Of a stretch of 62,552 bases of DNA, positions 2,872-60,032 are shown in pieces (position 1 is the stretch's first letter; each line of letters begins with the position of its first letter). A program made the translations under genes and the position numbers. Source of the stretch: Candidatus Shapirobacteria bacterium (GTDB taxonomy: Bacteria; Patescibacteriota; Microgenomatia; UBA12405); the NCBI GenBank assembly GCA_041649835.1, contig JBAZML010000004.1, forward strand, positions 1 through 62,552. The letters run 5' to 3'. The notes beneath the pieces are model-generated. The model did not search any database. It saw nothing but the letters and a program-made list of their open reading frames with translations, and was not told where the DNA came from.

Positions 2872-3744
2872 TTATTTGTGGGGGTTTTTACTGATGAAGT
2901 CTTTAATGTAGTCGAGGATATCAACGGTTGTAGTCCAAGCCAGTTCTTCGCGAGCTTTAGTGGGTGTTTCCCCAGATTCACTGCGACCGGGATAGCCTTC
3001 TATATATTCAATTGGGCCGCCAAAAGCCTGAGCTATTTCAGCAACTGAATATTTTTTTGAATTTTCCAAAGCATAACCGTCACCATTGCCCTTTTCTCCG
3101 GCTAAAATCATTCCTTTAGCTAGATCTCCAACATAGGTAAAGTTCCTTTTTTGAGTTCCCGGTTTAACTACCGGAAATGCTTCTCCGTTAAGATAGGCCT
3201 GTTCATATTTTGCGATTAAAGTGGCATATTTCCCCACTCCATTCTCTCTTGGTCCGAAGGCATTATAGAAATAACAAATGGCATAGGGTAGTTTGTACCA
3301 ACGACCATAGTTGTTGATTAAATCAACATTAGTAGCTTTTGAAAAAGAATAGGGGTTTTGATGACGACCATTACCTTCTGCGGCAAATTTAGTGCTTGAG
3401 GCGGCGTAGACTAATTTTCCCACTTTTCGTTGACGACAAAATTCAACTACGGCGAAGGTACCAATAGTATTCATGTCGAAAACTTTTTCAGAATCATCAA
3501 AAGAGGGGGCAACACGGGCGTATTCCCCAAGGTGATAGACGATGTCCGGTGTTTCAGAAATAATTTTATTGATATCTTTTGTATGTCCAACCCGATATTC
3601 AGCTCCTTCAATATGATTTTTAGTACTACCGGTAAAATAATTGTCGAGAGAAATGACCTTATTATTTGAATCCTTGACTAGATTTTCAATGATATGTGAG
3701 CCGATATGTCCGGCACCGCCAGTAACTAAAATTGTCTTTTGCAT
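2872..3744 (-). CDS. NAD-dependent epimerase/dehydratase (extended SDR)
   Basis: TGGAGHIG Rossmann motif, YSFSK catalytic YxxxK, YFYNAFGP, RNFTYVGD. Confidence 0.9.
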   Translation of the reverse strand: MQKTILVTGGAGHIGSHIIENLVKDSNNKVISLDNYFTGSTKNHIEGAEYRVGHTKDINKIISETPDIVYHLGEYARVAPSFDDSEKVFDMNTIGTFAVVEFCRQRKVGKLVYAASSTKFAAEGNGRHQNPYSFSKATNVDLINNYGRWYKLPYAICYFYNAFGPRENGVGKYATLIAKYEQAYLNGEAFPVVKPGTQKRNFTYVGDLAKGMILAGEKGNGDGYALENSKKYSVAEIAQAFGGPIEYIEGYPGRSESGETPTKAREELAWTTTVDILDYIKDFISKNPHK

Positions 3745-3750
3745 AGGTAA

Positions 3751-4839
3751 TTATAACTCAGAATAAACAACCCGCAGGGTTTCCATTAGTTTTGAATAAA
3801 AACGTAGATTATGAATTGTTGCCAATCTTAAGGCGGTTATTTCTTTGATACGAAAAAGATGGGCTAAATATGAGCGGGAATATTTTTGACAAAGTAGACA
3901 ATCGCAATATTTTGAAACCGGTTGGGAATCCCGATAATGAATACTTTTGTCTGGAGTGTAATATTCATATCCTTGGCTATTTTTCTCACTATAGACATAA
4001 AGTCTTTTGTGACGGGCATCACGAGTGGGTAGAACACAATCAAAAATATTCCACCCCATTTTTACTAAAGCGGTGATTTCGTGTGGTTTACCAATACCGA
4101 GGGCGTAAAGAAAGTAATTTTTGGGAGTAAAATCGGCAATAGTTTTTGCCACTTCATAATCAAAAGTACCATCAGCTTTAATCGGCCAGCCACCATAACC
4201 GAGGCCATCAAAGCCAATTTTGACTAGCTCTTCCGTACAGTATCGACGAAGATCAAGAAATTTTCCGCCCTGAACAACACCTAAAAGATAAGGAATTTTA
4301 TCGGGTCTTAGTTTTTTCTGAGCGATTAATATATCGAAAATTTGACGACATTCCCGTGCCCACTTTAGAGTGCGTTCAACACTAATTTTGGCTTCTTCAT
4401 AAGTACTTTTTGGATCAGTAAAGTCGTCTAGTACCACGACCATGTCGCTTTTTAATTCAAGTTGAAGTTTGATGGACATTTCCGGAGTAAAAAGAATTTT
4501 TTTACCGTCAAGTTTAAAGGTAACGCCAATATCTGTGACGGCTTTGTTGCCACCCATCGTTTTAGCTAAAGACATGACTTGGAAACCACCAGAATCAGAG
4601 ATGACTCCCCCACTCCAATTCATAAAGGGACGGACACCTTTAAACATTTTAATGACATCATGACCCGGATCACGGTATAGATGAAAAGTATTAACTAAAA
4701 TACCTAAGGTTTGGGTATTTTTTATGTCTTCAGAATCCAGGGTCTTTAAGACGGCTCGGGTTGCATCGGGAAAAAATACCGGAAGTTGGATTTTATCTCC
4801 TTGAAGAGTTTTGAAATGTGTAGGACGAGTAGAGTTCAT
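3751..4839 (-). CDS. tgt: tRNA-guanine transglycosylase (queuine tRNA-ribosyltransferase family)
   Basis: LVNTFHL, SDSGGFQVMSL, VVQGG, FDCVLPTRDAR, Zn site CDCLLC...TIHNL. Confidence 0.92.
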   Translation of the reverse strand: MNSTRPTHFKTLQGDKIQLPVFFPDATRAVLKTLDSEDIKNTQTLGILVNTFHLYRDPGHDVIKMFKGVRPFMNWSGGVISDSGGFQVMSLAKTMGGNKAVTDIGVTFKLDGKKILFTPEMSIKLQLELKSDMVVVLDDFTDPKSTYEEAKISVERTLKWARECRQIFDILIAQKKLRPDKIPYLLGVVQGGKFLDLRRYCTEELVKIGFDGLGYGGWPIKADGTFDYEVAKTIADFTPKNYFLYALGIGKPHEITALVKMGWNIFDCVLPTRDARHKRLYVYSEKNSQGYEYYTPDKSIHYRDSQPVSKYCDCLLCQKYSRSYLAHLFRIKEITALRLATIHNLRFYSKLMETLRVVYSEL

Positions 4840-12528: not shown

Positions 12529-13853
12529 TTAATTATTTCTGGTAATAGTATATAGGGTTGGATACTTAAGGAAAATAGCCGGACATTCTTCTAAGAGATC
12601 TTTTTGAAATTCCTGATAGATTTTTTTGCGTTCCTGTTGATCAAATGTTTGTCGGCCATCTTCTAAAAGTTTGTCAATTTTGGGATTATTTATCTTTGTC
12701 AAATTAGTTTTTAATTGAGTAGAGTGCCAAAAAAGATATTGATCCGGATCGGTTGGAATACTGCCATAGGCGAGAATAATATCGTAATTTTGAGTATCAA
12801 TTTGAGTGCTGATGTGGGCATTAACTTGAATTCCCAATATTTCCTCCCAATTTTTTTTGATGTTGTCAGCAATTTCCACCAAACGGCGATCGTTATATGT
12901 TAATTCAATTGATTCAATTCTATTTTTGGAAAAAAACTCTTTGGCTTTTTCCGGGTTAAAAGCATAGTTTTTAACTTGTGGTTATATGCCCATGATGTTG
13001 GAGAGATTGGTGAAATGGTTCTTTCATTTAGATCGGTGGTTTTAGGGGTGGCGTAGGCTAGTGCCTGACGTAATTGTTTGTTACCTAATTTGGCGGTATT
13101 TATAAACAGGGCTATGTATTTTTGGTCAGTACGGATGTTTTTGGTAATATCAATCTTTGGCCAATTGTCAAAATTTTTGGGAATTGTGCTAAGTTGAATT
13201 TGGTTGACTTCGCCAATTTTAAAAGCATTTAAAAGATCAGTTTCATTTTGATAAAAGCGATAAAGAATTGAATTATCCGAAGATTTTAAGTATAAATCTT
13301 TAATGTTTCCGTCTTGATAATCAAAGCGGTCAACTTGGTATTCACCCAGAGAGTCGAAATCTTTTTTGATTAGGGGAAGACTTAATGTTGAAAGAATCGG
13401 AGCAAAAGGTTTTTCTGTTTTGATGGTTAGATGCTGAGAATCGGTAAAGGTAATTGATAGTCCGGTAATTTTATAATTGATATCACTGGAGACAAAGGGC
13501 TTACCCTTATGCCACTTGATATCGGGATTTAGTTCAAAAATATATTGAGTATTGTCCTGACGAATATCAAGATTTTTTACTAATGGAGAAGTTTCAAATT
13601 TATTATTTTCGGTATTAACCGTTAAACCATAGGAAATTTTATTAGTAATATCATTGGGAAGGTTGTTGACAGTGTATAAGCCTTCCAGTCCGATTTTTTC
13701 AAGTGGACGGTTAATTTTTAAATAAAAAGATAATAATTGTTGACGAAAAGTGACTAAAATTATTCCCAAAATTAAACCTGAAAGAAGATAGAGCCAATTT
13801 CTTTTAATATAGTAGAAAAATAGTTCAAATTTGAATCTGATTTTAGTGATCAT
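12529..13853 (-). pseudogene. Family-5 (OppA/DppA-like) ABC substrate-binding protein split by a single-base frameshift at about 12980
   Basis: After ...SPISPTSWAYN the alternative frame reads VKNYAFNPEKAKEFF...LVEIADNIK and joins ORF 12529-12882 (DPDQYLFWHS...KIDKLLEDGR). True pseudogene or assembly error cannot be told apart here. Confidence 0.8.
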
Positions 13854-51891: not shown

Positions 51892-52983
51892 TCAAAATTT
51901 TGCTAGGATTTCAGGTCTAATAATAATTGGATCAATTTGATTTGAAAATATTTCAAATGAATTATATTTTTGGATGGTAATCCCCTTTTGATCTCTTTTG
52001 GTTAATTCCGAACCGATTATATTTTGATTGCTAAATCTTTTTTGTTCCTGAGCAATATCGATTGAGTAATTTAAATTGATAAATTCGGCTAAGTGATAAT
52101 AAAAAAGAGGGGTTAAATTGTTAATTAATTCAATTTGGGTATAAAAAGCAAAAGAAGCGGTCAGACGGGGATTACACTCCAGTAGATAAACCTGATTATC
52201 TGAGACAATAAAGTCTAAACCAAAAAAACCACGATAATTTAATGGTTTTAATATTTTTTCAGAAAAATTGGTAGTGATTTGATTTATTTGTTCCTGAATT
52301 TCCACGGGTGCAAGGGAGGGCCATTGGCGTCCAACTGTGGCAAAAGGATTTTGGGTAAAATCGATTAGACCAGTATATTGAAGTGCCGGAGGACTTTGAA
52401 TTAATCCGTAACGAGTGAGACAACAATTATTTAATAAAGAATAACCTGTTAAAAGCGGCGAAAATTTGGCTAAAGTTTTTTGGGGAATAATAGTTTGAGC
52501 AATTTCATAATTATTGAAATGGTGAGTACTGTTACCTGCCCAACCAAAATGAGTTTGGATAATTAAATTTTCACCGAATTTTTCCTGGGTTTTTTTAAAA
52601 GATTCCTGATTGAATTCCGCAATTATACCCGGTACAACCGGTAATTTATTTTGTTGACATATATCGAAGAATTTAACCTTATCTTCTAAAAATCGGTTCA
52701 TAGAAGCGGCATTACTGGCATTAATCCAGTGATTTTTTAAAGTTAAATGTTCAATTTTAGCGGAAGGTTTAAAAGGAATAATGACGGGTTTTGGAAATAA
52801 TTTTATTTTTTCTTGAATATTATTTTGAGACAAAAGGAAACCGCTATTTTTTATTTTTAAATTATCTTGAAAAATAGACTGAAAATTAGGTAGCTCGGGC
52901 AAATTTATGTCTAAAAATTTGTCGACTACTAAGAAGAAAAAATCGTAACCGGAATTTTTTAATAAATCTTCTAAATGATTCAT
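51892..52983 (-). CDS. ATP-grasp carboxylate-amine ligase of unknown specificity
   Basis: LEDKVKFF, FGWAGNST loop, YRGFFGLDFIV...VYLLECNPR. Confidence 0.82.
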   Translation of the reverse strand: MNHLEDLLKNSGYDFFFLVVDKFLDINLPELPNFQSIFQDNLKIKNSGFLLSQNNIQEKIKLFPKPVIIPFKPSAKIEHLTLKNHWINASNAASMNRFLEDKVKFFDICQQNKLPVVPGIIAEFNQESFKKTQEKFGENLIIQTHFGWAGNSTHHFNNYEIAQTIIPQKTLAKFSPLLTGYSLLNNCCLTRYGLIQSPPALQYTGLIDFTQNPFATVGRQWPSLAPVEIQEQINQITTNFSEKILKPLNYRGFFGLDFIVSDNQVYLLECNPRLTASFAFYTQIELINNLTPLFYYHLAEFINLNYSIDIAQEQKRFSNQNIIGSELTKRDQKGITIQKYNSFEIFSNQIDPIIIRPEILAKF

Positions 52984-53780
52984 AATCTGGCGGTACCGGT
53001 CAACAAAATAACCGGATATTCCCCAACTTCAAAGCTTTTTCGGGCTTCATAGAATGAGGCAAGGGTTAATGCAGATTCGGGAGAAGCTCTAAATTGTTTC
53101 ATAAATTCGAGACAATTGATTGCCTGAGTGTTTTTGACGATAATTCCAATACCTTGATGTTTTTTTATTGCCTGAATAATTTCCTTTTTTAGAGGTAGAT
53201 ATTTGACACTGAGAGCGTCGGTAATAGTTTCTGTTTCTAGTGTATATTGAGGGTCAAAGCTACTACAGATAGTGGGATTACTGGCGGGTTGAGCAGCGAA
53301 AATTTTAACGCTATCGGGCATAATTTTGCTGATTCCCAAAAGGGTGGTGCCGCTGCCGACAGGAATAAAAATACTGGTGATTTGAGGTAATTGGGCTAAT
53401 ATTTCGGTGGTAATTTGACCGTAGCCGGTTTGAGCAGTAATGTCGGTTGATTGACGAAGTAGATATGATTGGTTGGCTTTTGAAAATTTGATGGCATCAC
53501 TAATGGGTTTAAGGGATTCGATAATATGTCCTTTGATAAGGGATAATTTTTTGGGATTAATGTTTGGAGATACAAAAACGGTTAAAGGGATGCTGGCCTG
53601 TTGACAGTAAAAAGAGGCTGAAATAGCAGCGTTGCCAGTAGAGGAAATTACCGCTGATTTAAAGTCATTATTAATTAAATTTTGAACTTGTAAGGGCAAG
53701 GCTCGGTCTTTGGCTGAACCGGTAGGATTTTGATCTTCTCTCTTGAAATAAATTTCATCAATTTTGGTTAAGGGTGTCAT
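52980..53780 (-). CDS. Fold-type II PLP-dependent enzyme (threonine synthase/cysteine synthase-like)
   Basis: KREDQNPTGSAKDR (PLP lysine), SSTGNAA, PVGSGTT phosphate loop, VILLTG. Confidence 0.88.
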   Translation of the reverse strand: MTPLTKIDEIYFKREDQNPTGSAKDRALPLQVQNLINNDFKSAVISSTGNAAISASFYCQQASIPLTVFVSPNINPKKLSLIKGHIIESLKPISDAIKFSKANQSYLLRQSTDITAQTGYGQITTEILAQLPQITSIFIPVGSGTTLLGISKIMPDSVKIFAAQPASNPTICSSFDPQYTLETETITDALSVKYLPLKKEIIQAIKKHQGIGIIVKNTQAINCLEFMKQFRASPESALTLASFYEARKSFEVGEYPVILLTGTARL

Positions 53781-53849: not shown

Positions 53850-54014
53850 ATGTCAGATACTAATAATAAGGTTATTTGTCCTGATTGTCAGGTAGAGATA
53901 GAAAGTGAAACTTTCGGAGTGGGAGATATTCTAGAATGTCAGGAATGTGGAACTGAGGTAGAAATCATATCAATAAATCCGTTACAATATCGTGAATTAG
54001 TTGAGGAGAAGTAA
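53850..54014 (+). CDS. LysW-like small acidic Zn-ribbon (amino-group carrier-like) protein, 54 aa
   Basis: Not in ORF track (under 60 aa). MSDTNNKVICPDCQVEIESETFGVGDILECQECGTEVEIISINPLQYRELVEEK: two CxxC pairs in the LysW pattern (CPxC...GDILxCxxCGxExEx...P.L); ends EEK rather than EDWGE. Confidence 0.82.
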   Translation: MSDTNNKVICPDCQVEIESETFGVGDILECQECGTEVEIISINPLQYRELVEEK

Positions 54015-54542
54015 GCGGTAAGCTCCATCATATTTGAAACTATTATCAGTGATTTCAAACTCTCCATAACGGACTCCCCTACCTAGTCGGGAAGAATCAA
54101 CGTAAATTACCTTGTTACCAATTTTTTCGATAACGAATAAAAGATGGTGGCCATTTTTTTGACGGATTAAATCGGCAGTTTGAATGTCATGAACATCGAT
54201 TCTTTTTGATAGAGGATGTGAGGTAAGCATGTCGGCGGAGATGCGGCGGACATCAAGATTGATAGAAAAATAGAAATTTAAGAGATGACAAGCGAGACCA
54301 GAGCAGTCGATACCTAATTGGTGTTTCTTCTGAAAATTGTAGATTTGTTGAGGACTTAAATCGATTATTTTAATATTCTCATTATTGGCAAATTCAATGG
54401 TTTTTAAGGCTAATTCTTTGGCATTTCCTTTGCCGATTAAAGTATTATCAGATGAAATTTGCTTGGGAATATTAGTGTGATACGGCAAGCCGATGTATTT
54501 TAGAATTTCCTGACGGAGTTCTTCTAGTTTAATCCGAGCCAT
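53997..54542 (-). CDS. NlpC/P60-like (papain-fold) protein
   Basis: YIGLPY...GIDCSGL...ADLI....GHH...VDSS. Confidence 0.75.
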   Translation of the reverse strand: MARIKLEELRQEILKYIGLPYHTNIPKQISSDNTLIGKGNAKELALKTIEFANNENIKIIDLSPQQIYNFQKKHQLGIDCSGLACHLLNFYFSINLDVRRISADMLTSHPLSKRIDVHDIQTADLIRQKNGHHLLFVIEKIGNKVIYVDSSRLGRGVRYGEFEITDNSFKYDGAYRLLLLN

Positions 54543-55558
54543 AATCCAAAAATTGCTAATATGACTGTTGCCAGCCAGGCTCTAAATACTATTTTTGGTT
54601 CTTCCCAACCATTTTTTTGCAGGGTTAAATGAATTGGAGCTGCCGGAAATAATTTTTTATGAAGGTATATTTTACTAAAGATTTGTAAAGCACTAGACAT
54701 ACCTTCGATAATAAATGGGGCGCCAACAATAAACAAAGGAACTACTTTACCTAGTAGTAGAGCGATAACAGCGAAGGTGGCACCAAAAGAGAGAGAACCA
54801 ACATCACCGAGCCAAATACGGGCTGGGTAAACATTGAAATAGAGAAAGGCAATTAAAGATCCTATCCATAAAGATAGAAATAGAGAAATGGGTGTATCCA
54901 ATGAAGTTCCGGCCAAAATCCAAAAGGCAAAAAGGGAAATCATTAAGGTACCACAAGCTAATCCATCTAAACCGTCGGTAATATTGAAAAAATTAGCAAA
55001 AGCAACAATGATTATTGTAGAGATAGGAATAAAAAACAGACCCAGGCTAACGGCGCCGATAAAAGGTAAATAGATAAAATTGATACCAAGTTGAAAGTAA
55101 ATAAGTAAGGAAATAATGGTTGCCAAAACCAACTGAAGTAACAACTTGTATTTCATCCGAAGACCAAAAAATCCGGTATTTTTAAAATTAAAAAACTTGA
55201 GAATATCATCGTAAAGTCCAAGGAGGCCAAAACTTATAAAGGTAAAGAAAATAACGATTAGTTCGTTAATTAAATGATAATTACTGGAAATAAAAAGTCG
55301 TGACATTTTTAAAATTGGGAACAGAAATGAGAACAAAATGACAACGGTGAGAATAATCAAAAGTCCCCCACCAACAGGAGTGCCGCTTTTTTGAGCATGA
55401 AATTTATCAAAAATAGGGGTACTTTTATTTTGAAAATCTAGAGTTGATTGCTTTTGCCGTTGAAATTTTAATCGGTAAAGAAGATTAATATAGGGAACTA
55501 CCAGGATGCTGGTGGCGAGGAAGGAAAACAATAATAGGCCGAGGTATAGGTGGATCAT
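54524..55558 (-). CDS. mraY: Phospho-MurNAc-peptide transferase MraY
   Basis: KSGTPVGGG, GLYDD, NITDGLDGL, WLGDVGS, APIH. Confidence 0.95.
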   Translation of the reverse strand: MIHLYLGLLLFSFLATSILVVPYINLLYRLKFQRQKQSTLDFQNKSTPIFDKFHAQKSGTPVGGGLLIILTVVILFSFLFPILKMSRLFISSNYHLINELIVIFFTFISFGLLGLYDDILKFFNFKNTGFFGLRMKYKLLLQLVLATIISLLIYFQLGINFIYLPFIGAVSLGLFFIPISTIIIVAFANFFNITDGLDGLACGTLMISLFAFWILAGTSLDTPISLFLSLWIGSLIAFLYFNVYPARIWLGDVGSLSFGATFAVIALLLGKVVPLFIVGAPFIIEGMSSALQIFSKIYLHKKLFPAAPIHLTLQKNGWEEPKIVFRAWLATVILAIFGLWLGLN

Positions 55559-56883
55559 GTTTTTATATATTTTATATTAGCACCAAGGGAACAGAGCCGG
55601 TCGGCTAACTTTTCATATCCTCGCTCAATAAATTCAACATTATCGATAATACTTTCACCGTTTGCTGTCAGAGCAGCCAATGTGGCGGTGGCACCAGCCC
55701 TCAAATCGGAGACGGCGATGTGAATTGGTTTTAATTTTGAAGGACCGTATATTTTGACTCCATGAAAATATTCGAGATTATCCGATTCAGGATTAAAATG
55801 GTAGTACTCTGAGGGATTGGTGACTTCCGGATTAAAAAATTTTGTTTTGGCTCCCATCTGATTTAGAGTGCTGATATGTTGAAAACGTGAAGGAAATATT
55901 TTTTCAATAATGGAGCTACAACCAACAGATTGTGTCAGAACCAAACTAAAAATTGCTTGCCAATCGGTCATGAATCCTGGTTCGGGACCGGTTTCAATAT
56001 CAATGGCTTTTAAGTTTTTAACCCAATTTATGGAAATTTCATCTCTACCCCGAATTACTTGTGCCCCCATTAGTTCAATGATTCTTAAAAAAGTTTCAAT
56101 ATTTGTAGGTCTAATCCGCATAATATTAATTGAACCTTTGGTACATAATGCGGCACAGGCAAAGGTTACGGTTTCATTTCGGTCACCGATGATTTGATGT
56201 TCTGTTCCGTTAAGTACTGAAACGCCTTTGATATAAATTTTTTTTGGATCAGAGGTGTCCCGTTTTATCTTGGCCCCCATGTCATTTAACATTTCAATGA
56301 GATCATCTATTTCTGGCTCTAGGGCGGCATTTCTAATAACTGTTTCACCATTGGCAACAGCGGCCGTCATGATTACCACTTCGGTGACAGTGTGGGATGG
56401 TTTTGGAAATTCAAAATCGGTTGCTTGAATTCCGGAAGTAGTGAAACGTAAATGATCAGAAAACTCTTCGACATTAATATTCATTTTTTTGTAACATTCG
56501 AAAAGCCGATCAAGAGGTCTGGCACCCAATTTGTCACCACCTGGAATTGGGACGATAGCTTCGCCACAACGAGCCAATAAAGGAGCGGCGAACATAAATG
56601 AGGAACGGGAAACATTTCCGGTACCGTGTGGAACAACCGATGAGTTAATTTTATTGGTGGTGATTTCCAAGCTGTGAGTGCCGGTATAATTTATCGTTGA
56701 ACCCATTGATTTGGCGATACTTTCGGTAATATGAACATCTGATATGCAGGGAACATTGAGTAAATGAGTAGTCTCTTTGGATAGAAGACTGGCAATTATT
56801 TGTTTAAATGAAGCATTTTTGGCACCTCGGATGGAAACTTCACCATTTAGTGGTTTACCACCATTAATAATATATCGGGACAT
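55555..56883 (-). CDS. murA: UDP-GlcNAc 1-carboxyvinyltransferase
   Basis: GAKNA, PGGDKLGARP (Asp at the Cys115 position), EPEIDDL, PGFMTD, DLRAGA, RGYE. Confidence 0.93.
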   Translation of the reverse strand: MSRYIINGGKPLNGEVSIRGAKNASFKQIIASLLSKETTHLLNVPCISDVHITESIAKSMGSTINYTGTHSLEITTNKINSSVVPHGTGNVSRSSFMFAAPLLARCGEAIVPIPGGDKLGARPLDRLFECYKKMNINVEEFSDHLRFTTSGIQATDFEFPKPSHTVTEVVIMTAAVANGETVIRNAALEPEIDDLIEMLNDMGAKIKRDTSDPKKIYIKGVSVLNGTEHQIIGDRNETVTFACAALCTKGSINIMRIRPTNIETFLRIIELMGAQVIRGRDEISINWVKNLKAIDIETGPEPGFMTDWQAIFSLVLTQSVGCSSIIEKIFPSRFQHISTLNQMGAKTKFFNPEVTNPSEYYHFNPESDNLEYFHGVKIYGPSKLKPIHIAVSDLRAGATATLAALTANGESIIDNVEFIERGYEKLADRLCSLGANIKYIKT

Positions 56884-58181
56884 TATTTATTATTTTTGTA
56901 TAAATTAATAATTTTTTGAAATATTTTTAGACCATCAGAACCACCAGAACTAAAGTGTACCAGTATGTCACCAGTTTTTAGACTATTTTGGTAATGTTTT
57001 ACAATCTCTTCCGGAATAGGTAAATAAATACTACGGGGAATAATATTTAAGAAATCTTTGGCAATGAGACGGTCGGATTGTTTTATCTTGGAATTGAATT
57101 TTAATTTATAGATTACTGTTTCAGTGGCAAGTTCAAAAGATGGTAATAAAAGGTTTAAATTGGAACGATATTGCATAAATGAGGCGTGATTTTCATAAAA
57201 AACTTTTAATCTCGATTGGGGATGGGTATCTTTTATGGCTTTGAGTGCAGCACCAATTCTGTCGGCTGATTGGGCAAAATCATCGATAAAGATTATTCCT
57301 TTATTATTTCCAACCACTTCTAAACGTCTTTTTATACCTTTAAAATTTTTGAAACTTCTCTTTATTGATTCTGAAGATATCTTGAGCTTATTTGCCAAGG
57401 TTTCAACTGCCCCTAGATTTTCCTGATTATGTTTGCCTAACAACTGATTGGATATTTTGGTTTCACTGTAGGGTATTTTTTGACATTTGGCGAAACTAAG
57501 CAAAGGTAAAATTAAGGTATCATTTGAATTGTAAATTAAAAGACCATCTTTGGGGATGTTCTCTACCAATTGTTTGAAAGCATTAAAATTTTCGTTTTCA
57601 TTAGAATAACTTTCCCGATGTTCCCATTTGGCACTGGTTAGGATTAGGTATTTGACAGGGTAATATAAAAATTTAGCTTTGGTATCAAGTCCATTTATTG
57701 ATTCGTCGGCTTCGACAACTGACCAATTTGAATTGGAAAAATGGAGAGAATCTAAGCGATTAAGGCTTTGACCTCCAATCATGTAAGCAGGGTCATAATT
57801 AGCATTTTTAAGCAAATAAGTGACGGCAGCAGTAATGGTGGTTTTGCCATAAGACCCGGCAATTAAAATGGAGTTGTTCTTAATTAGGTTTTGGGAAATG
57901 TATTGAGTGGCGGAAATGTAGGGAATTTTTTGAATTTTTATATCTTCAAAATCTGTCTGAGTATTATGGAATGAAGCATAGGATGAACCGATAATAGCTA
58001 AATCAATCTGAGAATTAATCTCTGTCTGATTTATGGGAATGTTGGCTTTTTTTAGTTGTTTATTGAAAGGCGGATAGGTTTTTTCCTGATCTGACCCGCT
58101 TATTTGATGACCTTGTTTTTGTAGAGCTAAGGCAAGTGGCGCTGTCATGGAACCGGCAATGCCAACAAGGTGTATATGCAT
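56883..58181 (-). CDS. MurC-family ligase, Mpl-like (UDP-MurNAc:peptide ligase)
   Basis: IHLVGIAGS, GSDQEKTYPP (Mpl-type GSDxxxYPP), AGSYGKTT, VEADE, GIKRRLE, DDFAQ. Confidence 0.75.
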   Translation of the reverse strand: MHIHLVGIAGSMTAPLALALQKQGHQISGSDQEKTYPPFNKQLKKANIPINQTEINSQIDLAIIGSSYASFHNTQTDFEDIKIQKIPYISATQYISQNLIKNNSILIAGSYGKTTITAAVTYLLKNANYDPAYMIGGQSLNRLDSLHFSNSNWSVVEADESINGLDTKAKFLYYPVKYLILTSAKWEHRESYSNENENFNAFKQLVENIPKDGLLIYNSNDTLILPLLSFAKCQKIPYSETKISNQLLGKHNQENLGAVETLANKLKISSESIKRSFKNFKGIKRRLEVVGNNKGIIFIDDFAQSADRIGAALKAIKDTHPQSRLKVFYENHASFMQYRSNLNLLLPSFELATETVIYKLKFNSKIKQSDRLIAKDFLNIIPRSIYLPIPEEIVKHYQNSLKTGDILVHFSSGGSDGLKIFQKIINLYKNNK

Positions 58182-58183
58182 AT

Positions 58184-58786
58184 CTATTGATTATATGACA
58201 ACCACTGCCCTTGAGTAAAATACTGGAATCCTGGGAAATTTCTTTTGTAGTAGCCAAGCTTGGTTTTGGCATTAAAACGTCCCAAGTAACAATACTTTAA
58301 CTTTGAATTAAAACTATCAGTAACTAACTGGAGGGAGAGTCTAATGGGTAAATCATTGTGAGCTAATTTGGGATTATAAAAAACATAGGCTATATGAGAG
58401 ATATTTTTATCGATATAGCAAATTGAGTAGGCACAAATTTGCTTATCCTGGTCATACCATTCATATAGATAGTTAAAAATATGATTGATGAATACGGTTT
58501 TTATTGAGGATACTGGGAATTCCCAACCCAATTCTTTGACCCAACTGACAAGTTGTTTTTGAATTTTGGGAGTATATAAAAACTCAGATAGAGGAATTAG
58601 TTTGTAGGTAAAATTTTCGGTTTTTTTGATAATTCTTCTGTTTTCTGATGATAATTGAAATAAATTCAAATTGCATCGAGAACTGGAATTTTCATCAATG
58701 TAAAAAGTATGTTTGGAATTTCGTTGTGGTAAAAGACCATTTTGATAATTTTCTTCAATCGAATGATCGTTTTGGATATTATACAT
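58184..58786 (-). CDS. Bpt/ATE-like aminoacyl-tRNA-dependent transferase
   Basis: SR..LNLFQLSSENRRIIKK, YVFYNP.L...L, YCYLG....GYYK..F align by eye with the ATE_N/ATE_C pattern of Bpt. Start moved to MYNIQ, overlapping the murE stop. Confidence 0.65.
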   Translation of the reverse strand: MYNIQNDHSIEENYQNGLLPQRNSKHTFYIDENSSSRCNLNLFQLSSENRRIIKKTENFTYKLIPLSEFLYTPKIQKQLVSWVKELGWEFPVSSIKTVFINHIFNYLYEWYDQDKQICAYSICYIDKNISHIAYVFYNPKLAHNDLPIRLSLQLVTDSFNSKLKYCYLGRFNAKTKLGYYKRNFPGFQYFTQGQWLSYNQ

Positions 58787-60032
58787 TTTGAGATTTAAGC
58801 CGAAAGGCAGTTCTAAAAGCTTCGGCTTCTGACCAGGGATATTCAGTGGAGCCATGAAGAATACTAGTTTCATGACCTTTGCCACAGGCGATAATAGTGT
58901 CCCCTGCTTTGGCGATTTTAATTGCTAGGTTGAAGGCATCCTGACGGTTGGGAATATTGGCATAATGAAATTTACTTGGGTCGGTAATAATCGGATTCAA
59001 TGAATCAATTAAAATTGATTTTTGAAGATTAATCCCGGAAATTATTTGTTGATTTATATCTTCGACTTTTTCATTTCTGGTATCGTCAGCAGTAATAATG
59101 GCAATATCTGACAATTCAGATACATTTTTTCCCATTATGGGCCTTTTACTTTTGTCCCGGCCACCGGTAGCTCCAAAAATAACAATTATTCTACCTTTGG
59201 TAGTGAGACGAAGAGAGGAAAGGGTAACCAAAAGAGCGTTGGGAGTATGGGCAAAATCAATGATTGTCTTTAGATGAAGACTGTTTTCAATTATTTCTCG
59301 ACGACCTTTAGTTTCGGGAAATTTGATAATTGTTTGAGAGAATATTTTTGGATCAAGGTTTAATTTTGAAAATACAGCAAAACTAGCCAGAATATTATAG
59401 ATTTGATATTCATAATTACTGTCGGTAGTTAGCTTATGATCATTTACGGTAAAGTTTAGGGTATTGGAATCGATTTCTATATTTTTGGCAGTAAAATCGG
59501 ATTTATTTTTTATACTATATGTTGAAACCGGAATAGTAATCATTTTACTTAGTGCCTGATATTGAGAGTCATCACGGTTAATGACACCGAAGTCAGATTG
59601 TGAAAAGAGTTTGGCTTTGGTAGCGGTGTAATTTTCAATTGTTTTGTGGTAATCAAGGTGCTCGTGAGAAATATTGGTTATCAAACTTATTTTAAAATGA
59701 CAGCCAAAATATCGATATTGATCAATGGCGTGTGAGGTGACCTCGCAAATGACATGGGTATAACCATTTTTTTGGTAATCCAAAAACATTTGTTGAAGTA
59801 TTTTGGGATCAGGACTGGTGGTGTGTAGGCCAGGAGAACTTATGGTACTAATGACTCCACATTTTATACCGCTGTTTTCCAATAGTTTTTGTAATAAGGT
59901 ACAGGTAGTAGTTTTACCGTCAGTTCCGGTGACTCCAATTAGAATAAGTTTACGGCTAGGAAATTTAAAATATAGATTCCAAAATATGCTTTGAGGTAAG
60001 TGCCAAAGGAGATTTTTTAATTTACGAATCAT
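58779..60032 (-). CDS. murE: UDP-MurNAc-dipeptide--diamino acid ligase MurE
   Basis: GVTGTDGKTT, CEVTSH, TNISHEHLDYH, IDFAHTP, FGATGGRDKSKRPIMG, DDTR, GKGHE. Confidence 0.9.
   Translation of the reverse strand: MIRKLKNLLWHLPQSIFWNLYFKFPSRKLILIGVTGTDGKTTTCTLLQKLLENSGIKCGVISTISSPGLHTTSPDPKILQQMFLDYQKNGYTHVICEVTSHAIDQYRYFGCHFKISLITNISHEHLDYHKTIENYTATKAKLFSQSDFGVINRDDSQYQALSKMITIPVSTYSIKNKSDFTAKNIEIDSNTLNFTVNDHKLTTDSNYEYQIYNILASFAVFSKLNLDPKIFSQTIIKFPETKGRREIIENSLHLKTIIDFAHTPNALLVTLSSLRLTTKGRIIVIFGATGGRDKSKRPIMGKNVSELSDIAIITADDTRNEKVEDINQQIISGINLQKSILIDSLNPIITDPSKFHYANIPNRQDAFNLAIKIAKAGDTIIACGKGHETSILHGSTEYPWSEAEAFRTAFRLKSQNV

Follow-up and report, generated by a model that had tools for sequence, protein, structure and literature searches.

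The cytoplasmic pathway of MurC, MurD, MurE, and MurF is treated as universal in walled bacteria and has become a drug-target paradigm. A locus in Candidatus Shapirobacteria raises the question which enzyme starts the stem peptide where part of this pathway is missing, and from where the peptide is taken. The stretch analyzed here, called the window, is contig JBAZML010000004.1 of assembly GCA_041649835.1 at its full length of 62,552 nucleotides. At 56883..58181 on its minus strand it encodes a MurC/Mpl-family ligase of 432 amino acids, hereafter MplX, within a division and cell wall (dcw) gene cluster. An earlier note, made from the sequence alone, had read this protein as Mpl-like rather than MurC-like and had suggested that the organism may build its wall from scavenged host stem peptides, bypassing MurC and MurD. 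Judged by phylogeny and by residues of its C-terminal domain, MplX is a previously uncharacterized clade, sister to the murein peptide ligase Mpl. It is the sole MurC/Mpl-type enzyme, and the stand-in for MurC, in Shapirobacteria and several other families of the candidate phyla radiation (CPR), and the neighboring genes are a more likely source of the stem peptide than a host.

Placement of the Ligase Beside Mpl

All three Mur-ligase domains were matched in the open reading frame (ORF) by Pfam. Residues 29–38 read GSDQEKTYPP and residues 300–305 DDFAQS, which was correctly noted before as replacing DDFAHH. The corresponding motifs are GSDANVYPP and DDFAHH in Escherichia coli Mpl and GSDLAPNP and DDYGHH in E. 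coli MurC; the spacing from GSD to YPP is one residue longer in the window ligase than in E. coli Mpl. Features described as Mpl-specific are Tyr35 (the Y of YPP), an (S/T)AFFDKRSK loop, DDFAHH, EPRSNT, and SNG (Das et al., 2011; PMC3060825). In Mpl numbering, the last three are located at F374-A375-H376-H377, E402–T407, and S483–G485 of the C-terminal domain. Present in the window ligase are YPP (Y36-P37-P38), a diverged loop with the sequence NGLDTKAKF, DDFA, and SSG for SNG. In the loop region the insertion has the same length as in Mpl, and D166, K170 (97–100%), and F171 are conserved; the other residues differ, and the position of Mpl Tyr182 is occupied by a serine.

The ligase stays below the family cut-offs of both hidden Markov models (HMMs), reaching 201.3 of 335.1 bits on TIGR01082 (MurC) and 154.2 of 388.7 bits on TIGR01081 (Mpl). 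The higher score on the MurC model was rejected as evidence for a MurC, since genuine gammaproteobacterial Mpl proteins score 250–285 bits on TIGR01082 and TIGR01081 is narrow. BLASTP yielded 146 bits for E. coli Mpl and 86 bits for E. coli MurC, and by sequence the top match among solved structures was the Mpl of Psychrobacter (3hn7). Nearly all of the best 150 matches among 1.84 billion representative proteins are closer to E. coli Mpl than to E. coli MurC and carry GSDxxxYPP. The closest homologues are labelled Candidatus Shapirobacteria or Patescibacteria and are annotated automatically as Mpl in IMG and as "Mur ligase family protein" at NCBI; both labels are inaccurate for MplX proteins and are corrected by the present finding. 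A homologue of the ligase (66% identical) and one of the NlpC/P60-like protein described below (76%) were found on a 34-kb contig labelled Candidatus Methanoperedens (P0303/P0418), probably a CPR contig mis-binned into an archaeal metagenome-assembled genome.

A homologue search from E. coli Mpl for diverse Mpl proteins returned Enterobacterales only, with 82–100% identity, and was of little use. The main maximum-likelihood tree was calculated with IQ-TREE (LG+C20+F+G4) from 98 sequences and rooted on four MurD proteins. It separates a MurC clade (92/83) from an Mpl-side clade (98/87). Within the latter (Mpl and MplX together, 100/99), a clade of true Mpl including the E. coli protein (100/100) is sister to the MplX clade (100/99), whose 36 sequences are the window ligase and all related CPR ligases. 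This topology was recovered again in a FastTree analysis with 195 rows and a quick IQ-TREE run with 111 rows. The window ligase falls outside both the MurC clade and the clade of characterized Mpl from E. coli and its relatives, and is sister to the latter. The reading as Mpl-like rather than MurC-like was upheld in so far as the protein lies on the Mpl side of the rooted tree; a grouping with MurC, which had been named as the refuting outcome, was not seen.

The YPP motif itself is not diagnostic. When 151 phylum-wide CPR genomes were searched with an MplX profile and the next-best scorers were examined, one ligase each with YPP and a six-residue loop insertion of the Mpl type was found in the families f11, f25, f26, f39, f47, and f48. 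These proteins carry DDYAHHP, PHT-YSRT, and M(S/A)VG, reach the MurC cut-off or come close to it, and occur together with canonical MurD. The YPP motif combined with a C-terminal domain of the MurC type, in a sole ligase beside MurD, was recorded at L213–L220 and L225–L227 (genomes G127, G174, G078, G140, G065, G103, G064, G091, G116, and G115). As the only ligases of their kind next to a canonical MurD, they apparently work as MurC. In the tree they form the basal grade of a "YPP superclade" (99), below the clade of Mpl and MplX (98), and YPP is 100% conserved among them too. With their MurC-type C-terminal domain they look, in evolutionary terms, like intermediates between MurC and Mpl/MplX. 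YPP together with the loop insertion was therefore rejected as a marker of a peptide ligase, and YPP is unsuited for calling Mpl. The GSDxxxYPP signature invoked by the earlier note is thus present in the window ligase but is not specific for Mpl.

The informative characters, which MplX shares with Mpl alone, lie in the C-terminal domain at the positions where MurC contacts L-Ala, as a column-by-column comparison of MplX, Mpl, the basal YPP-type MurC, and MurC indicates. In Haemophilus influenzae MurC, Tyr346, His376–Arg380, and their neighbors are the reported L-Ala contacts (PMC3060825). The tyrosine of DD(Y)A (Tyr346), found in 95–100% of the MurC and basal sequences, is Phe or Leu in MplX and Mpl. 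The PH(x)-YSR loop (His376–Arg380) has a one-residue insertion in MplX and Mpl and in 0 of 37 MurC and basal sequences. Arg380, invariant in MurC and the basal group, and the following threonine are lost in both clades, and Ser or Asn stands at the position of Ala/Val412, which results in S-(S/N)-G-G. In the window ligase the positions of Tyr346, His348, His376, and Arg380 are occupied by F, Q, H, and Q, respectively, where Tyr and Arg are conserved to 95–100% in MurC and the basal group.

The ATP- and Mg-binding residues K113, E157, H188, N255, R286, and D301 are fully or almost fully conserved throughout the MplX clade. Since these ligands are kept, MplX should be an active, ATP-dependent UDP-N-acetylmuramic acid (UDP-MurNAc) ligase. 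Further changes are peculiar to MplX: Ser or Thr stands in place of the second His of HH, and position 308, which is Ala in Mpl and Glu in MurC, is basic throughout. The histidine of the P-loop GTHGKT (residue 111 of the window ligase), present in 95–100% of MurC, Mpl, and the basal group, has given way to Tyr or Phe in about 90% of the MplX proteins.

Absence of MurC and MurD and Distribution of MplX

The assembly is 99.7% complete and contains four genes with a Mur-ligase-M domain, namely MurE, MurF (on contig C13), FolC, and MplX. Neither MurD nor a second MurC was found in it. Candidates for a hidden MurC or MurD were discarded, as a weak match to the MurC HMM on C15 proved to be EF-Tu; a weak MurI match on C21 is a radical-SAM protein. 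Because a second murC and murD are both missing from a near-complete genome, MurC and MurD are truly bypassed, as had been supposed, and the search for a second murC that the earlier note had called for came back empty.

MurA, MurB, MurE, MurF, Ddl, and Alr are retained; MurB and the Ddl-Alr-MurF genes were found with E. coli proteins as tblastn queries. The latter three genes make up a cluster of their own elsewhere in the genome (C13:25015-28286). Since this cluster is present, the D-Ala-D-Ala branch is canonical; stem positions 1 and 2 are rewired. In the MurF protein (C13:27072-28286), a hydrophobic N-terminus precedes the P-loop, which is located at about residue 41.

Among 41 relatives at order level, canonical MurD and MurC occur in family f2 only, which lacks MplX; all other families have MplX. 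In the 151 CPR genomes, MplX was detected in 10 genomes of six families. MurD is present in none of these 10 but in 119 of the 141 others (Fisher's exact test, p = 5e-8, uncorrected for phylogeny). In another CPR family, a single open frame of 1341 amino acids (G151:C20:7477-10110) contains both a MurC-like and a MurD match and looks like a MurC-MurD fusion.

The MurE gene of the window (58779..60032, minus strand) scores above the TIGR01085 cut-off. Its alignment begins at about position 75 of the profile, and the N-terminal UDP-binding domain is missing. MurE is above the cut-off in 37 of the 41 relatives and adjoins the ligase in nearly all of them. The short form occurs in all 38 relatives that bear a MurE, including family f2 with its canonical MurC and MurD. 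The shortness, considered as a sign of peptide assembly away from the nucleotide, was rejected, since every MurE of the order is short, also in MurD-bearing genomes; being common to these lineages, it is uninformative on MplX.

Neighboring Genes and Gene Fusions

On the minus strand of the window, the dcw cluster has the order rsmH, ftsI, murE, a gene for an ATE/Bpt-like aminoacyl-tRNA transferase homologue, mplX, murA, mraY, a gene for an NlpC/P60-like cysteine hydrolase, a LysW-like gene (on the plus strand), genes for a pyridoxal phosphate (PLP)-dependent enzyme and an ATP-grasp ligase, ftsW, murG, ftsA, and ftsZ. That mpl normally lies outside dcw, as had been stated, holds for E. coli, where it is located next to fbp. 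The ATE/Bpt-like gene is found at 58184..58885 (minus strand), with its real start probably near 58786, and MplX starts 2 nucleotides past its stop codon. The MplX stop overlaps the start of murA (TAATG), which encodes the UDP-GlcNAc enolpyruvyl transferase (55555..56883, minus strand) and is translationally coupled to mplX. MraY follows at 54524..55558 (minus strand).

The NlpC/P60-like hydrolase (53997..54542, minus strand) has no signal peptide. The ORF itself has no Pfam match; its homologues match PF00877. An AlphaFold model (pLDDT 94.7) had only NlpC/P60 or CHAP hydrolases among its top ten Foldseek matches (E-values 2.5e-3 to 7e-2, probabilities 0.95 to 1). The earlier naming of an NlpC/P60 protein in the window can be kept as a fold class, supported by homologues and structure but not by a Pfam match of the ORF. 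The LysW-like zinc-ribbon protein (53850..54014, plus strand) consists of 54 amino acids and ends in EEK. The PLP-dependent enzyme (52980..53780, minus strand) has a PALP fold and resembles threonine synthases and dehydratases, and the ATP-grasp ligase is encoded at 51892..52983 (minus strand).

This arrangement recurs in distant families, in the order MurE, ATE-like, MplX, NlpC/P60-like, MraY, LysW-like, PLP enzyme, and ATP-grasp ligase. The ATE-like gene accompanies MplX in 9 of its 10 genomes, in each case immediately upstream, and was seen in 0 of the 141 others apart from one match at chance level. In P0125 an N-terminal ATE-like part (ATE_C) is fused to MplX via a Pro/Ser-rich linker, and the ligase part is 99.8% identical to the ligase of family f7 (G030). 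Fusions of MplX with a C-terminal NlpC/P60-like hydrolase were found in P0154 and in two f67 proteins (L194:4130-5473 and L195:3880-5214), and P0137 is an MplX fused to a C-terminal MurB. At the locus of P0141 (L209:2142-3209 and 3206-4612), an early-branching member of the MplX clade, the end of a DUF1611 gene is overlapped by the ligase gene, a MurE-like gene is found nearby, and an ATE-like gene is absent; this locus may represent a different partner system.

The "OppA-like" binder of the window, which had been counted as support for salvage, did not hold up. This ORF of 317 amino acids (12900-13853, minus strand) has a short SBP_bac_5 match of 40–51 residues (47 bits with Pfam) and reaches 33.5 bits on Opp4A, for which the cut-off is 650. 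The ORF is 43 kb away from the ligase, between a major facilitator superfamily (MFS) transporter and a transglutaminase-like protein, with no ABC permease adjoining. Neither an AmpG nor an Opp system turned up in the neighborhood of the ligase, genome-wide transport not having been surveyed; the two MFS proteins of the window are generic and show no AmpG signal. OppA and AmpG were consequently dropped as support for salvage.

A Possible Endogenous Source of the Stem Peptide

We favor, with middling confidence, the reading that MplX ligates a preformed L-Ala-(D)-Glu peptide, supplied by the neighboring module, onto UDP-MurNAc, after which MurE and MurF would act normally. An endogenous source is suggested because the ligase is locked to, or fused with, a tRNA-dependent transferase and clustered with LysW-like, ATP-grasp, and PLP genes. 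Processing of glutamate would fall to the ATP-grasp ligase, the LysW-like carrier, and the PLP enzyme. L-Ala from Ala-tRNA would then be placed onto the free alpha-amine of Glu by the ATE/Bpt-like transferase, and the NlpC/P60-like hydrolase would free the peptide. MplX would link a short ready-made peptide, in the simplest case L-Ala-D-Glu, through its N-terminal L-Ala to the lactyl carboxylate of UDP-MurNAc, and the product would be extended as usual by MurE and subsequently by MurF with Ddl and Alr.

N-terminal Asp or Glu residues are the targets of ATE/Bpt enzymes, so that Glu fits as the acceptor. An aminoacyl-tRNA transferase acylates free amines only; it can build L-Ala-Glu and cannot extend UDP-MurNAc-L-Ala. 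For this reason a tRNA-dependent transferase cannot replace MurD on the nucleotide, and its product L-Ala-Glu would need an Mpl-type ligase. A UDP-MurNAc-dipeptide is the expected intermediate, because MurE is retained above its cut-off in the relatives. YkfC, a member of the NlpC/P60 family, frees L-Ala-D-Glu from L-Ala-gamma-D-Glu-X (PMC2954226). In its complete form, the proposal is a route for stem positions 1 and 2 that runs in the reverse direction: Glu would be loaded by the ATP-grasp ligase on a Lys-tailed LysW-like carrier, epimerized by the PLP enzyme, N-acylated with L-Ala by the Bpt/ATE-derived transferase, and released by the NlpC/P60-like hydrolase, with MplX as a UDP-MurNAc:L-alanyl-D-glutamate dipeptide ligase. 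Such a route, replacing MurI, MurC, and MurD in Shapirobacteria and at least five other families, is offered as a tentative possibility. We infer the identity of the peptide and every chemical step of the module.

Several observations weigh against the favored reading. The peptide-site motif EPRSNT of Mpl is replaced by ENHASF in the window ligase, and the HH of DDFAHH by QS. The position of the clade alone cannot fix the substrate of MplX, because overproduced E. coli Mpl can use L-Ala (PMC3060825) and the basal members of the superclade are apparently MurC. The approximately unbiased (AU) test against a grouping of MplX with MurC is marginal (delta lnL 23.1, p = 0.046), with a constraint picked after the tree had been seen. 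The AlphaFold model of the window ligase (pLDDT 94.3) does not help, as Foldseek cannot tell MurC (1p31, 2.5e-29) from Mpl (3hn7, 3.1e-29); comparison with the PDB was dropped as a discriminator, since the differences in TM-score reflect domain closure. No module was detected beside the ligase in the deeper clade members P0141, P0160, P0215, and P0261. MurI was not found in a search by tblastn with the E. coli protein only, and the step of MurD on the nucleotide substrate might in principle be taken over by an ATP-grasp enzyme.

Alternative Explanations

The last point leads to another reading, in which MplX is a functional MurC that adds free L-Ala (or Gly or L-Ser), the MurD step is carried out on the nucleotide by a non-homologous enzyme, e.g., the ATP-grasp ligase using D-Glu from the PLP enzyme, and the ATE-like protein does something else, e.g., forms a Fem-like branch on residue 3. 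It would agree with the basal superclade members that coexist with MurD and have no other MurC, with the latent L-Ala activity of E. coli Mpl, and with His332 (His376 of H. influenzae MurC), which is kept in about half of the MplX sequences; the bond from L-Ala to D-Glu is within reach of ATP-grasp chemistry. The higher score on the MurC than on the Mpl HMM (201 and 154 bits) also seems to point this way, but is uninformative given the scores of true Mpl on the MurC model. The loss of the L-Ala-site invariants Tyr346, Arg380, the threonine, and Ala/Val412, together with the Mpl-type loop insertion, argues against a MurC function, as does the ATE-like gene, which is fused to MplX rather than to MurE and is confined to MurD-less genomes. 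A fusion partner of the NlpC/P60 type would moreover have no role. On balance we regard a MurC-like MplX as rather unlikely. Less probable still appears an assembly of the whole stem, as a tri- or pentapeptide, away from the nucleotide by a MurE and MurF without domain 1, with MplX attaching it in one step like Mpl. MurE, and apparently MurF, are indeed without the N-terminal domain that contributes to binding of the UDP moiety, and E. coli Mpl accepts tri-, tetra-, and pentapeptides (PMC3060825). However, the short MurE is a trait of the lineage unrelated to MplX, found also beside MurC and MurD in family f2, and both enzymes otherwise look canonical, which makes this assembly very improbable.

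CPR cells are generally host-attached, and salvage from a host was the source proposed by the earlier note. MplX would then load a host tri-, tetra-, or pentapeptide, or an L-Ala-D-Glu cut by the cytoplasmic NlpC/P60-like enzyme, and the wall would depend on host muropeptides. Besides host attachment, the kinship of MplX with Mpl, the absence of MurC and MurD, the failure to find MurI with the search described, and the signal-less NlpC/P60-like hydrolase adjacent or fused to the ligase are consistent with this source; cytoplasmic NlpC/P60 enzymes of the YkfC type free L-Ala-D-Glu from recycled tripeptide (PMC2954226; bioRxiv 10.1101/2022.11.17.516864). But uptake of whole tripeptides cannot be the sole route, because MurE is retained above the family cut-off beside the ligase in nearly all relatives. 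Transport genes near the ligase give no support either, with neither AmpG nor Opp in its vicinity and an "OppA-like" ORF that amounts to a match of 51 residues. In addition, the link of the ligase to a tRNA-dependent transferase and to carrier, ATP-grasp, and PLP genes has a biosynthetic rather than a catabolic character. Of the earlier proposal, the bypass of MurC and MurD therefore stands, whereas a host as the main source is not supported and appears improbable. Some host-derived L-Ala-D-Glu, set free from imported peptides by the NlpC/P60-like enzyme, may nonetheless be used.

Comparison With Known Systems and Implications

Mpl and MplX are sister clades with the same three-domain fold and share YPP, a loop insertion ending in K-F, DDFA, the one-residue insertion in the substrate loop of the C-terminal domain, and S-(S/N)-G-G, as well as, presumably, the use of UDP-MurNAc and ATP. 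Unlike Mpl, MplX lacks AFFDKRSK as written, N69/R73/G74, HH, and EPRSNT, and has Tyr or Phe for the P-loop His. It is encoded in dcw as the sole ligase without MurC and MurD, whereas Mpl is an accessory recycling enzyme beside both; its substrate is likely shorter, a dipeptide, and endogenous. With MurC, MplX has in common the fold (Foldseek 2.5e-29 to 1p31), the nucleotide substrate, the place in the pathway, and the dcw location. It differs by belonging to another clade, by lacking the invariant Tyr, Arg, and Thr at the L-Ala site and the G-A-G motif of the C-terminus, and by never having been found with MurD in the genomes examined. The YPP-type MurC of families f11, f25, f26, f39, f47, and f48 share YPP, the six-residue loop insertion, and the superclade with MplX, but keep DDYAHHP, PHT-YSRT, and M(S/A)VG, coexist with MurD, and form a basal grade.

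The nearest precedent for a rewired D-Glu step is the MurD2/MurL route of Xanthomonas, where MurI is missing (PMC8788868). That route keeps MurC and a MurD homologue and epimerizes on the nucleotide, whereas here both ligases are gone and a relative of Mpl is used. The recycling by YkfC-type NlpC/P60 enzymes and Mpl in Bacillus and Chlamydia shows the same pairing of a cytoplasmic enzyme yielding L-Ala-D-Glu with a UDP-MurNAc peptide ligase. Those enzymes are catabolic or serve recycling and are unfused, in contrast to MplX and the NlpC/P60-like protein, which are located in a biosynthetic operon and are fused in some lineages. No description of the MplX clade or of the pathway was found in the literature on CPR or Patescibacteria with mpl, murC, or murD.

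A large and coherent group of CPR bacteria hence lacks two of the four Mur ligases, and probably the glutamate racemase too, with the remaining enzymes of the pathway retained. If MplX does ligate a dipeptide or longer peptide, an enzyme of the recycling type would have been turned into a main biosynthetic step, and aminoacyl-tRNA, and with it translation, would be tied to the backbone of the wall, beyond the side branches. A whole module of CPR genes annotated as "hypothetical" would thereby become directly testable with purified proteins.

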